This document shows positions 17,528 to 22,627 of a stretch of DNA of 64,000 nt, piece after piece. Within the stretch, counting starts at the first letter, position 1; each line of letters opens with the position of its first letter. Location of the stretch: contig OZ024746.1 in the NCBI GenBank assembly GCA_964016885.1, positions 28,458,001 to 28,522,000 on the forward strand, written 5' to 3'. A program made the position numbers and the translations under genes. The DNA comes from Eledone cirrhosa. Lineage: Eukaryota. Under the pieces are notes generated by a model. It had not been told where the DNA came from. It saw nothing but the letters and a program-made list of their open reading frames with translations, and ran no database searches.

Positions 17528-18105
17528 AAGTTATTATATATTGGTAAACGGAATAGAAAATGCTGACAAATTGTTCACAGTTGAAAAATGGTTTAATTAG
17601 GAATAAATATATATATATATATATATATATATAAATATATATATATATATATATATAAATATATATATATATAAATAATATATATATATAAATATATATA
17701 TATATATATATATAAATATATATATATATATATATATATATATATATATATATATATATATATATATATATATAAATATATATATATATATATATATAAA
17801 TATATATATATAAATATATATATAAATATATTTATAAATATAAATATAAATATATATATAAATATATATATAAATATATATATATATATATAAATATATA
17901 TATATATATATATATATATATATATACACATATATACACATATGCATACAGGTACACATACGTATATGCACGCATCAGTTTAGCCGGCGTTTATTATAAC
18001 GCCGGCCGCTTTGTTCGTTTGTTTGTCAACAAAGCGAACAGCCTGAATTTATGCCATACGGTGGTAAGGCAACCACGTCACCTTTTTGTTCAACACTGAC
18101 ACAGG

Positions 18106-18150
18106 AACGATGTACTAGTTTCAAGCTTGTTAGCTATCATCAGCACCGTT
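18106..18150 (-). ncRNA. Minimal type-I hammerhead (further copies at 18605-18649, 19124-19168, 19663-19707, 20196-20240)
   Basis: Minus strand reads aacggtg CTGATGA t agct aaca agct t GAAA ctagTA catcgtt: 7-bp stem I, 4-bp stem II, palindromic ACTAGT stem III, GUA site. Confidence 0.85.
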
Positions 18151-20524
18151 TACCCATCTGCCAGATAGTTGAACGTTCGAAAGTATATACTTTCCTTATG
18201 AAAATTAACGGCTGAGCAGCCTAATTTGCATATTGAGTGAGTTAAATCGGTCAGGCATACCGAAAACGATAAGTTGAAAAAAAATGAAAACGAAATTTCA
18301 TTTCTCACTCTTAGTATGGCACTTACTTAAATGTAAGTATGTATGTATACGTACATACATATATGTATACAGACGTACAGTAGCATGCATATATATATAT
18401 ATATATATATATATATATATATATACACATATATACACATATGCATACAGGTACACATACATATACGCACGCATCAGTTTAGCCGGCGTTTATTATAACG
18501 CCGGCCGCTTTGTTCGTTTGTTTGTCAACAAAGCGAACAGCCTGAATTTATGCCATACGGTGTTAAGGCAACCACGTCACCTTTTTGTTCAACACTGACA
18601 CAGGAACGATGTACTAGTTTCAAGCTTGTTAGCTATCATCAGCACCGTTTACCCATCTGCCAGATAGTTGAACGTTCGAAAGTATATACTTTCCTTATGA
18701 AAATTAACGGCTGAGCAGCCTAATTTGCATATTGAGTGAGTTAAATCGGTCAGGCATATCGAAAACGATAAGTTGAAAAAAAATGAAAACGAAATTTCAT
18801 TTCTCACTCTTAGTATGGCACTTACTTAAATGTAAGTATGTATGTATACGTACATACATATATGTATACAGACGTACAGTAGCATGCATATATATATATA
18901 TATATATATATATATATATATATATATATATATATATATATATACACATATATACACATATGCATACAGGTACACATACATATATGCATGCATCAGTTTA
19001 GCCGGCGTTTATTATAACGCCGGCCGCTTTGTTCGTTTGTTTGTCAACAAAGCGAACAGCCTGAATTTATGCCATACGGTGTTAAGGCAACCACGTCACC
19101 TTTTTGTTCAACACTGACACAGGAACGATGTACTAGTTTCAAGCTTGTTAGCTATCATCAGCACCGTTTACCCATCTTCCAGATAGTTGAACGTTCGAAA
19201 GTATATACATTCCTTATGAAAATTAACGGCTGAGCAGCCTAATTTGCATATTGAGTGAGTTAAATCGGTCAGGCATACCGAAAACGATAAGTTGAAAAAA
19301 AATGAAAACGAAATTTCATTTCTCACTCTTAGTATGGCACTTACTTAAATGTAAGTATGTATGTATACGTACATACATATATGTATACAGACGTACAGTA
19401 GCATGCATATATATATATATATATATATATATATATATATATATATATATATATATATATATATATATATATATATATATATACACATATATACACATAT
19501 GCATACAGGTACACATACATATATGCACGCATCAGTTTAGCCGGCGTTTATTATAACGCCGGCCGCTTTGTTCGTTTGTTTGTCAACAAAGCGAACAGCC
19601 TGAATTTATGCCATACGGTGTTAAGGCGACCACGTCACCTTTTTGTTCAACACTGACACAGGAACGATGTACTAGTTTCAAGCTTGTTAGCTATCATCAG
19701 CACCGTTTACCCATCTGCCAGATAGTTGAACGTTCGAAAGTATATACTTTCCTTATGAAAATTAACGGCTGAGCAGCCTAATTTGCATATTGAGTGAGTT
19801 AAATCGGTCAGGCATACCGAAAACGATAAGTTGAAAAAAAATGAAAACGAAATTTCATTTCTCACTCTTAGTATGGCACTTACTTAAATGTAAGTATGTA
19901 TGTATACGTACATACATATATGTATACAGACGTACAGTAGCATGCATATATATATATATATATATATATATATATATATATATATATATATATATATATA
20001 TATATATATATATACACACATATATACACATATGCATACAGGTACACATACATATATGCACGCATCAGTTTAGCCGGCGTTTATTATAACGCCGGCCGCT
20101 TTGTTCGTTTGTTTGTCAACAAAGCGAACAGCCTGAATTTATGCCATACGGTGTTAAAGCAACCACGTCACCTTTTTGTTCAACACTGACACAGGAACGA
20201 TGTACTAGTTTCAAGCTTTTTAGCTATCATCAGCACCGTTTACCCATCTGCCAGATAGTTGAACGTTCGAAAGTATATACTTTCCTTATGAAAATTAACG
20301 GCTGAGCAGCCTAATTTGTATATTGAGTGAGTTAAATCGGTCAGGCATACCGAAAACGATAAGTTGAAAAAAAATGAAAACGAAATTTCATTTCTCACTC
20401 TTAGTATGGCACTTACTTAAATGTAAGTATGTATGTATACGTACATACATATATGCTGCTCAGCCGTTAATTTTCATAAGGAAAGTATATACTTTCGAAC
20501 GTTCAACTATCTGGCAGATGGGTA

Positions 20525-20569
20525 AACGGTGCTGATGATAGCTAACAAGCTTGAAACTAGTACATCGTT
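20525..20569 (+). ncRNA. Minimal type-I hammerhead (further copies at 21034-21078, 21549-21593)
   Basis: The same motif read directly on +: aacggtgctgatgatagctaacaagcttgaaactagtacatcgtt. Confidence 0.85.
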
Positions 20570-22627
20570 CATGTGTCAGTGTTGAACAAAAAGGTGACGT
20601 GGTTGCCTTAACACCGTATGGCATAAATTCAGGCTGTTCGCTTTGTTGACAAACAAACGAACAAAGCGGCCGGCGTTATAATAAACGCCGGCTAAACTGA
20701 TGCGTGCATATATGTATGTGTACCTGTATGCATATGTGTATATATGTGTATATATATATATATATATATATATATATATATATATATATATATATGCATG
20801 CTACTGTACGTCTGTATACATATATGTATGTACGTATACATACATACTTACATTTAAGTAAGTGCCATACTAAGAGTGAGAAATGAAATTTCGTTTTCAT
20901 TTTTTTTCAACTTATCGTTTTCGGTATGCCTGACCGATTTAACTCACTCAATATGCAAATTAGGCTGCTCAGCCGTTAATTTTCATAAGGAAAGTATATA
21001 CTTTCGAACGTTCAACTATCTGGCAGATGGGTAAACGGTGCTGATGATAGCTAACAAGCTTGAAACTAGTACATCGTTCCTGTGTCAGTGTTGAACAAAA
21101 AGGTGACGTGGTTGCCTTAACACCGTATGGCATAAATTCAGGCTGTTCGCTTTGTTGACAAACAAACGGACAAAGCGGCCGGCGTTATAATAAACGCCGG
21201 CTAAACTGATGCGTGCATATATGTATGTGTACCTGTATGCATATGTGTATATATGTGTATATATATATATATATATATATATATATATATATATATATAT
21301 ATATATATATGCATGCTATTGTACGTCTGTATACATATATGTATGTACGTATACATACATACTTACATTTAAGTAAGTGCCATACTAAGAGTGAGAAATG
21401 AAATTTCGTTTTCATTTTTTTTCAACTTATCGTTTTCGGTATGCCTGACCGATTTAACTCACTCAATATGCAAATTAGGCTGCTCAGCCGTTAATTTTCA
21501 TAAGGAAAGTATATACTTTCGAACGTTCAACTATCTGGCAGATGGGTGAACGGTGCTGATGATAGCTAACAAGCTTGAAACTAGTACATCGTTCCTGTGT
21601 CAGTGTTGAACAAAAAGGTGACGTGGTTGCCTTAACACCGTATGGCATAAATTCAGGCTGTTCGCTTTGTTGACAAACAAACGAACAAAGCGGCCGGCGT
21701 TATAATAAACGCCGGCTAAACTGATGCGTGCATATATGTATGTGTACCTGTATGCATATGTGTATATATGTGTATATATATATATATATATATATATATA
21801 TATATATATATATATATATATATATATATATATATATATATATATATATATATATATATATATATATATATATATATATATATATATGCATGCTACTGTA
21901 CGTCTGTATACATATATGTATGTACGTATACATACATACGTATATGTATATTTATATATATATATATGTATATGTATATATATATACATATATGTATATT
22001 TATATATATCTACATATATATATATATATATATATATACACACATATACATATATATACATAAATATATATATGTATACATATATATATATATATATATA
22101 TGTGTGTGTGTGTGTATGTGGTCGTAAGAAGTAACCTAAAAGGAAACTATATTAGAAAATATGAATGAATTATTATTAGATGTCAAGACGCCATTTTCCC
22201 CGAATTACATGCAGTTGTGAATTTCTAAATTGAGAAGAAGACCAATGAATATCGTATTGGGAGTACATCATTTATGAAGGTCTTGGAGCCTTATATATAT
22301 ATACATCTGTCTATATATATATAATAATTGTTTAGGTGGATATCCAGTGATTTCGATCTGGTTGTTTACAATGTGCTCAACAAATTCATTTGGAGCACAC
22401 ACACCTGGTTAATTGTAATACAACAGTCAGAAGTCTAAGCCGAGTTTGGATCTAGCTGTCGAAACGGCCGGAGCTCAGCCGTCGTGGTCCTGATTCTTTT
22501 CTATATATATATAAATATTCATATATATATATATATATATATATATATATATATAAAGAAAAAGAGATGAAATCGAAAATGCAACTGGAGTCTTATTTAA
22601 AAAAAATATATATATATTTATTTGGTT

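Follow-up and report, generated by a model that had tools for sequence, protein, structure and literature searches.

An array of eight hammerhead ribozyme units was analyzed in a 64,000-nt stretch of the Eledone cirrhosa contig OZ024746.1 (hereafter the window, to which all coordinates refer). With a probability of about three in four, the array represents a single insertion, with two arms, of a hammerhead repeat family that codes for no protein, a retrozyme without long terminal repeats (non-LTR retrozyme), which was likely copied into a (TA)n microsatellite in trans by a Penelope-like reverse transcriptase (RT)/endonuclease (EN), probably from circular or uncut multimeric RNA. Judged from its sequence, the family shows the testable features of animal non-LTR retrozymes, a class that is already known. 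An earlier reading of the letters alone (the sequence-only reading) knew of no description of this family, and literature searches on hammerheads, retrozymes, Penelope-like elements (PLEs) and cephalopods, which covered part of the literature and excluded supplements, gave no paper on it either. Statements attributed below to PMC7229834, PMC8557442, PMC11167929 and 10.64898/2026.07.22.740005 refer to the available portions of these publications.

Hammerhead units of the array

One hammerhead motif per unit was identified, five on the minus and three on the plus strand. The eight near-identical units with this motif had been described in the sequence-only reading and were all present where it had placed them. 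The letters of each unit are AACGGTG-CTGATGA-TAGCT-AACA-AGCTT-GAAA-CTAG-TA-CATCGTT, apart from the copy at 20233 with the loop AAAA in place of AACA. The CTGATGA box was found at positions 18143, 18642, 19161, 19700 and 20233 (minus) and 20532, 21041 and 21556 (plus). Cleavage is predicted after positions 18113, 18612, 19131, 19670 and 20203 on the minus strand and after 20562, 21071 and 21586 on the plus strand; as an example, the type I hammerhead at 20525..20569 (plus) would be cut after the GUA at 20562.

The distance between neighboring motifs was 499, 519, 539 and 533 nt on the minus and 509 and 515 nt on the plus strand. These differences are due to pure TA runs, which vary between 36 and 114 nt. 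The embedded length-variable (TA)n tract noted before is thus a property of the window units, but a long tract is particular to their young subfamily, since representatives of two other subfamilies carry (TA)4-7. Without the TA part the unit comprises about 460 nt, and the complete window units differ from one reference unit at 0 to 5 of 460 positions, with no variant common to a subset of units. All frames of at least 100 amino acids over the array are microsatellite read-throughs, so the unit is considered non-coding. It shows no LTR anatomy either, although primer binding site and polypurine tract were not searched for. In every unit the TA tract and its flanks form a very long hairpin (e.g., 21200-21360). 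The minimum free energy (MFE) of the monomer was −193.7 kcal/mol (z −13.8), with the TA run accounting for much of it.

The minus arm (17929..20455, minus strand) comprises five units read from 20455 to 17929 and is 5′-truncated at 20455. There it meets head to head, with 1-nt microhomology, the plus arm (20455..21938, plus strand) with three units and a short fixed end in TA-rich DNA. In the last unit of the minus arm, the internal TA tract is an expanded (TA)n with TT interruptions (17607..17928) and the target of a nested PLE (12718..17606, minus). Beyond the PLE the minus arm continues (12570..12716, minus) with TA tract and a further unit, of which the initial ~115 nt are present, and has its long fixed end in (TA)n. 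Since the unit resumes in register beyond the PLE and stops at 12570, the PLE sits inside the TA tract of the unit and was most likely inserted later. The interval of 17925..21938 given in the sequence-only reading does contain the units, but the insertion extends past the nested PLE, its true extent being 12570-21938. That reading had noted neither the nested PLE nor the second end at 12570 nor the rule of two fixed ends described below.

In the motif, stem I has 7 bp and stem II 4 bp with an AACA loop; the core reads CUGAUGA/GAAA, and the palindrome ACUAGU precedes the GUA site. In metazoans a palindromic stem III usually has 1–2 bp and acts in a dimer (PMC4209133), in agreement with what the sequence-only reading had said on the minimal stem III. 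The unit resembles the published hammerheads of this dimer model in its palindromic stem III region, but its motif lies outside a pseudo-long terminal repeat (pLTR). With a stem I of 6–7 bp and a 4-bp stem II without G10.1-C11.1 it is nearer to the 'canonical' metazoan hammerhead type. In predicted folds the core of the monomer misfolds in the MFE structure, and the swapped dimer is at most 1 kcal/mol from the cofold MFE.

Genome-wide distribution and conservation of the ribozyme

A search for the core pattern across the genome (G000) revealed 24,749 exact matches, dispersed over the assembly, compared to none for the reversed pattern, so the motif is not due to chance. With the catalytic positions left free, 27,034 matches were found. 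Three subfamilies were characterized, with representative units of 515, 446 and 422 nt. A fourth subfamily keeps the core and has C.A at 10.1-11.1 and a GUU site (L324, L328, L329, L332, L318).

Along contig C1, 55 core-selected loci with 94 arms were taken in order of position. One core was found in 61 arms, two to seven cores in 18 and none in 15, and not one of the 55 loci ran into an RT frame. The family is thus a dispersed, often multimeric element and not a local satellite, the term used before. The longest array contains 44 cores on a single strand (L094-L096, G000:C4:352454465-352477948). In some arrays markers are fixed in all units, in L108 even across both arms, and the youngest arrays combine near-equal TA lengths with array-wide markers.

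A reading in which the ribozyme is a dead relic, and the array either an ordinary satellite enlarged through unequal crossing-over or a fold-back artefact of the assembly, is largely refuted and very improbable. Local duplication in the 44-mer and the neutral decay of single copies, in which the core behaves like flanks and stems, would fit it. Against it stand the dispersed, mostly short copies, their fixed and non-mirror ends, and the core kept between subfamilies. In the window, TA lengths and private changes are not the same in the two arms, which are thus no fold-back.

Among 208 segments anchored on the flanks, none of the 15 core and palindrome columns had a minor letter above 5%, compared to 36% of 200 flank columns; this contrast is inflated, since most loci had first been picked by core or overall similarity. 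The variable columns belong to N7, loop II and stem I; in the latter, pair 1.3 was G-U in 129, A-U in 40 and U-G in 37 segments. In contigs of public runs chosen by overall likeness alone, no catalytic-core variants above 5% were listed. Single copies decay neutrally, with private changes at 10 of 2352 core and 262 of 43515 flank positions. Genome-wide, all 12 core letters were kept at 87.3% of the stem-matched sites, and the loss per site was about 1.1% in the core and 1.2% in the stem. The sequence-only reading had taken a core decaying as fast as its flanks as a point against the ribozyme. Dead copies indeed decay evenly, whereas the source lineages, on partly core-ascertained sequence data, keep the ribozyme across subfamilies. 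RNA-editing scars were considered and rejected (A>G 36, T>C 26, p=0.25).

Contigs of four public runs contain related sequence under four organism labels, and X4 covers 4 of 28 bins; these data have no bearing on expression. Low-depth contigs of the runs X5 and X6 (organisms C and D) are nearly identical to the unit, which may reflect related species, a shared element or contamination.

Ends and anatomy of the insertions

For the 3′ ends of the arms there are two fixed positions, separated by about 60 nt and each abutting (TA)n; the 5′ ends are scattered. Since the copies end inside (TA)n, a target-site duplication is unreadable. By script, 17 of 19 head-to-head pairs of the position sample joined one long and one short end (p~3e-4 against independence), and one of the two exceptions is long plus short by eye. 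The same was found for 7 of 7 pairs in young loci and for 10 of 15 among the top hits of the older subfamily. In the window insertion, which follows this rule, 12570 is the long and 21938 the short end, and the arms are joined at 20455. A separate insertion of the older subfamily (32740..33391, plus; ~80-86% identical, 446-nt unit type) has one hammerhead with a predicted cut after 33114, a short inverted arm and also one long and one short end. In the nested PLE family, all 10 of 10 pairs were long plus short, with a 41-nt tail.

Tail and inversion are described as hallmarks of PLEs (PMC8557442). For the one PLE that has been reconstituted in vitro, two internal RT starts flank the tail, and cutting and extension affect both strands of the DNA (PMC11167929). 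The unit family displays this anatomy, namely tail, inversion, 5′ truncation and microsatellite target, and its footprints therefore likely point to PLE machinery acting in trans. In such a process the PLE protein would nick (TA)n on both strands and prime one cDNA at each of the two internal starts; after traversing one or more units, the cDNAs would be joined at their far ends, which would produce the inversion.

The nested Penelope-like element

The nested PLE consists of a 65-bp pLTR, ORF1 (open reading frame 1), an RT+GIY-YIG frame, a 1.1-kb 3′ untranslated region (UTR) and a short-type 3′ end. Its pLTRs derive from its own 3′ UTR. ORF1 reads from an ATG at 17473 to 16163 and in this copy has a premature stop after 152 codons; the RT+GIY-YIG frame (16232-13878) encodes 784 aa. 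RT, C-terminal GIY-YIG and a CX4CxxC linker were read from the sequence. By domains and linker the element is of the Neptune/Nematis type, with the clade not fixed; a search for RT homologues returned mostly unnamed proteins and likewise fixed no clade. The family is young and large: the top copies are 98-100% identical, the end motif has 8,673 matches and many RT frames are open. No hammerhead was detected when both strands were scanned for four variants of the core motif, nor by Rfam on 12730-13200, though an atypical ribozyme is possible.

In 16 of 29 copies of the family, ORF1 is 436 aa long. It overlaps (16232-16163, minus) with the 784-aa RT/EN frame, whose first conserved motif lies upstream of the first Met. 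A T TTT TTA heptamer is located within the overlap and suggests a −1 frameshift; its six-T run was matched in 27 of 27 copies. Of 54 PLE fragment hits, 19 have their 5′ ends clustered some 200 nt upstream of the short end (window ~12900-12920, minus; PLE positions 4685-4712), which suggests a fixed RNA 5′ end, e.g., a pLTR transcription start.

The nested family and the unit family are alike in target, anatomy and age, and the former is a candidate partner. It is not a proven one, because other PLE families, with RT identities of 22-31%, are present in the genome. The unit was also considered as the pLTR of the nested PLE and rejected. A unit of the window subfamily adjoined the PLE in 1 of 30 3′-end and 1 of 30 5′-end loci, in both cases the copy of the window itself, and one further PLE locus (L068) lies ~400 bp from an old unit copy. 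Local alignments of the unit to the PLE did not exceed those of shuffled sequences. Together with the absence of any RT frame next to the 55 unit loci, this agrees with the earlier assignment to a retrozyme-type family instead of an ordinary pLTR.

The unit could still be the amplified pLTR of an unsampled, autonomous, hammerhead-bearing PLE family. The other PLE RT families would leave room for such a source, and the protein searches gave the nearest family only. Xenopus retrozymes are homologous to pLTRs, with 24 of 57 families matching 22 transposable elements, 21 of them PLEs (10.64898/2026.07.22.740005). We nevertheless consider this origin improbable, as the units stop at their own fixed ends in TA and none of the 55 loci continues into an RT frame.

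Junctions between PLE and unit without TA were found at L200, a direct head-to-head join, and at L241. L200 came from the 55 position-sampled unit loci, L241 and L235 from 90 PLE-centered loci. Among 35 further unpaired PLE ends no clean PLE-unit hybrid was found, and L279 was rejected as a hybrid because its filler is target DNA. L200 and L241 are suggestive of hybrids; a deletion between neighboring insertions could also explain both, and they are not counted as proof.

The RNA template

If a cut linear monomer were the template, cDNAs would have to stop where the ribozyme cleaves. Only 2 of the 94 arms in the core-selected position sample start within 6 nt of the cut, compared to 2.7 expected. 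In a test that was not core-selected, 600 of 26,677 post-cut motifs lacked the normal base at −3, and in 29 of 30 of those inspected the ribozyme was still upstream. A ratio of 87.5% that resembled an excess at the cut was largely due to point changes and the fourth subfamily with its GUU site; in nine loci fetched for this ratio, the fourth subfamily accounted for four and a start at the cut for one. Since copies almost never begin at the cut, the template was likely a circle or an uncut multimer, and the cut linear monomer is disfavored. Of the earlier proposal that monomers or circles are copied in trans by a PLE RT, the trans-acting PLE thus agrees with the footprints, but not the cut linear monomer.

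By analogy with published retrozymes, tandem transcripts would self-cleave as dimers, and a host ligase would close the monomers into circles. Star-like variation and array-wide markers in the sequences lean toward a single monomer circle over an uncut multimer, although the data do not separate the two.

The template of the same PLE-driven insertion might instead be a linear transcript that reads through an existing array and stays uncut, with no circles and with the ribozyme serving another step. Read-through of the cut site is explained equally well in this way. PAc used unprocessed RNA as its main substrate in vitro, and the ribozyme was dispensable (PMC11167929). In addition, the 44-unit array carries repeating higher-order haplotypes, which could be multimer copies and imply that local duplication or multimer copying also makes tandems. 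On the other hand, the window units have no shared private variants, and the youngest arrays, with near-equal TA lengths and array-wide markers, are as one monomer template predicts. The core is kept in four subfamilies, and related retrozymes are mainly circular in vivo (PMC7229834). The linear template is to be taken seriously, but we regard it as rather unlikely.

Weighing of the evidence

Beside the arguments for a linear template and the ascertainment of the 208 segments, further findings weigh against the proposed insertion of a retrozyme by a PLE. At the base of stem II (10.1-11.1), a U.U mismatch replaces the usual G-C; the axolotl motif HHR_Amex2 is alike in this respect and cleaves (PMC7229834). 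The Rfam search suggested in the sequence-only reading did match Hammerhead_HH9 and no other hammerhead family, but only at E=0.043 and 18.5 bits, below the gathering score of 52, and TA-repeat microRNA matches dominated the window-wide scan. For dimers of Xenopus retrozymes, cleavage in vitro was observed in 1 of 9 (10.64898/2026.07.22.740005). Cleavage, transcription and circle formation of the unit are predictions by analogy. The long-plus-short rule is broken in 4 of the 15 older top-hit pairs. Local homology between unit and PLE is at background level, as 2-68 of 100 shuffles reach the best sense-strand scores. In an older subfamily, the terminal 14 nt match the short end of the PLE at 13 of 14 positions, the best of 9,750 windows; a second older subfamily reaches 11 of 14, and in the subfamily of the window the resemblance is not end-specific.

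A more specific proposal sees the hammerhead RNA circle as a parasite: without any sequence relation to the hammerhead-less, TA-targeting PLE that helps it, the circle would exploit this PLE by mimicry of its start site. One enzyme complex would copy the circle round from both ends of the break and could bear RNAs of different origin at the two ends, one from the PLE and one from the retrozyme, as L200 and L241 might indicate. This helper-parasite scheme is tentative and, in our estimation, doubtful.

Comparison with known elements

The family resembles metazoan non-LTR retrozymes in its tandem units, which are non-coding and carry a single type I hammerhead, its range from monomers to long arrays and its short palindromic stem III (PMC7229834; 10.64898/2026.07.22.740005). 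The sequence-only reading considered the unit long for an animal retrozyme. This does not hold, since its ~510 bp exceed the ~170-400 nt given in PMC7229834 but lie within the published range of 51-972 bp (10.64898/2026.07.22.740005). These sources describe for the metazoan retrozymes neither (TA)n targets nor two fixed ends, head-to-head arms or read-through statistics. Conversely, cleavage and circles were demonstrated for published retrozymes, whereas for this family they are predicted. The unit also differs from the pLTR-homologous Xenopus retrozymes (10.64898/2026.07.22.740005) in having no homology to the pLTR of the co-located PLE.

With C-terminal EN+ PLEs of the Neptune/Nematis type, the family shares the microsatellite target, 5′ truncation, the inverted 5′ copy and an optional tail at one end (PMC8557442; PMC11167929). 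It differs from them in coding for no protein and in its longer tail (~60 nt compared to 30-40 nt). The nested PLE itself has no detectable hammerhead, while canonical hammerheads are called universal in such PLE clades (PMC8557442; PMC11167929). Chlamys elements such as MRC1 are similar as non-autonomous PLE parasites with multicopy head-to-tail insertions (PMC8557442). Unlike the unit family, they generally have 3′-end similarity to autonomous families and belong to a mostly hammerhead-less green-algal group (PMC8557442).

Other features of the window

A tandem array with 105 copies of a 45-bp repeat was found at 54634-59358, and an ACC-rich array with purine skew at 35842-38015; both are possibly coding repeats. 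A CAG/CAA-rich repeat in a GC-richer region (50476-50710) is possibly a polyglutamine-coding exon.

Implications for retrozyme mobility

The spread of animal retrozymes by PLE enzymes via RNA circles was proposed, but not shown, in PMC7229834 and 10.64898/2026.07.22.740005. Read from genomic sequence, the footprints of the Eledone cirrhosa family support this route. Both start sites are mapped and the target is defined as (TA)n; in addition, the copies read through the ribozyme site, and a young PLE family is available as a candidate. An RNA template, a target and a candidate enzyme are thereby supplied, which makes the proposed mechanism directly testable in vitro. If the helper-parasite scheme is true, the nested family would be a named enzyme for testing rolling-circle retrotransposition. 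With about 25-27 thousand cores, the retrozyme family constitutes a sizeable and recently active part of the genome.

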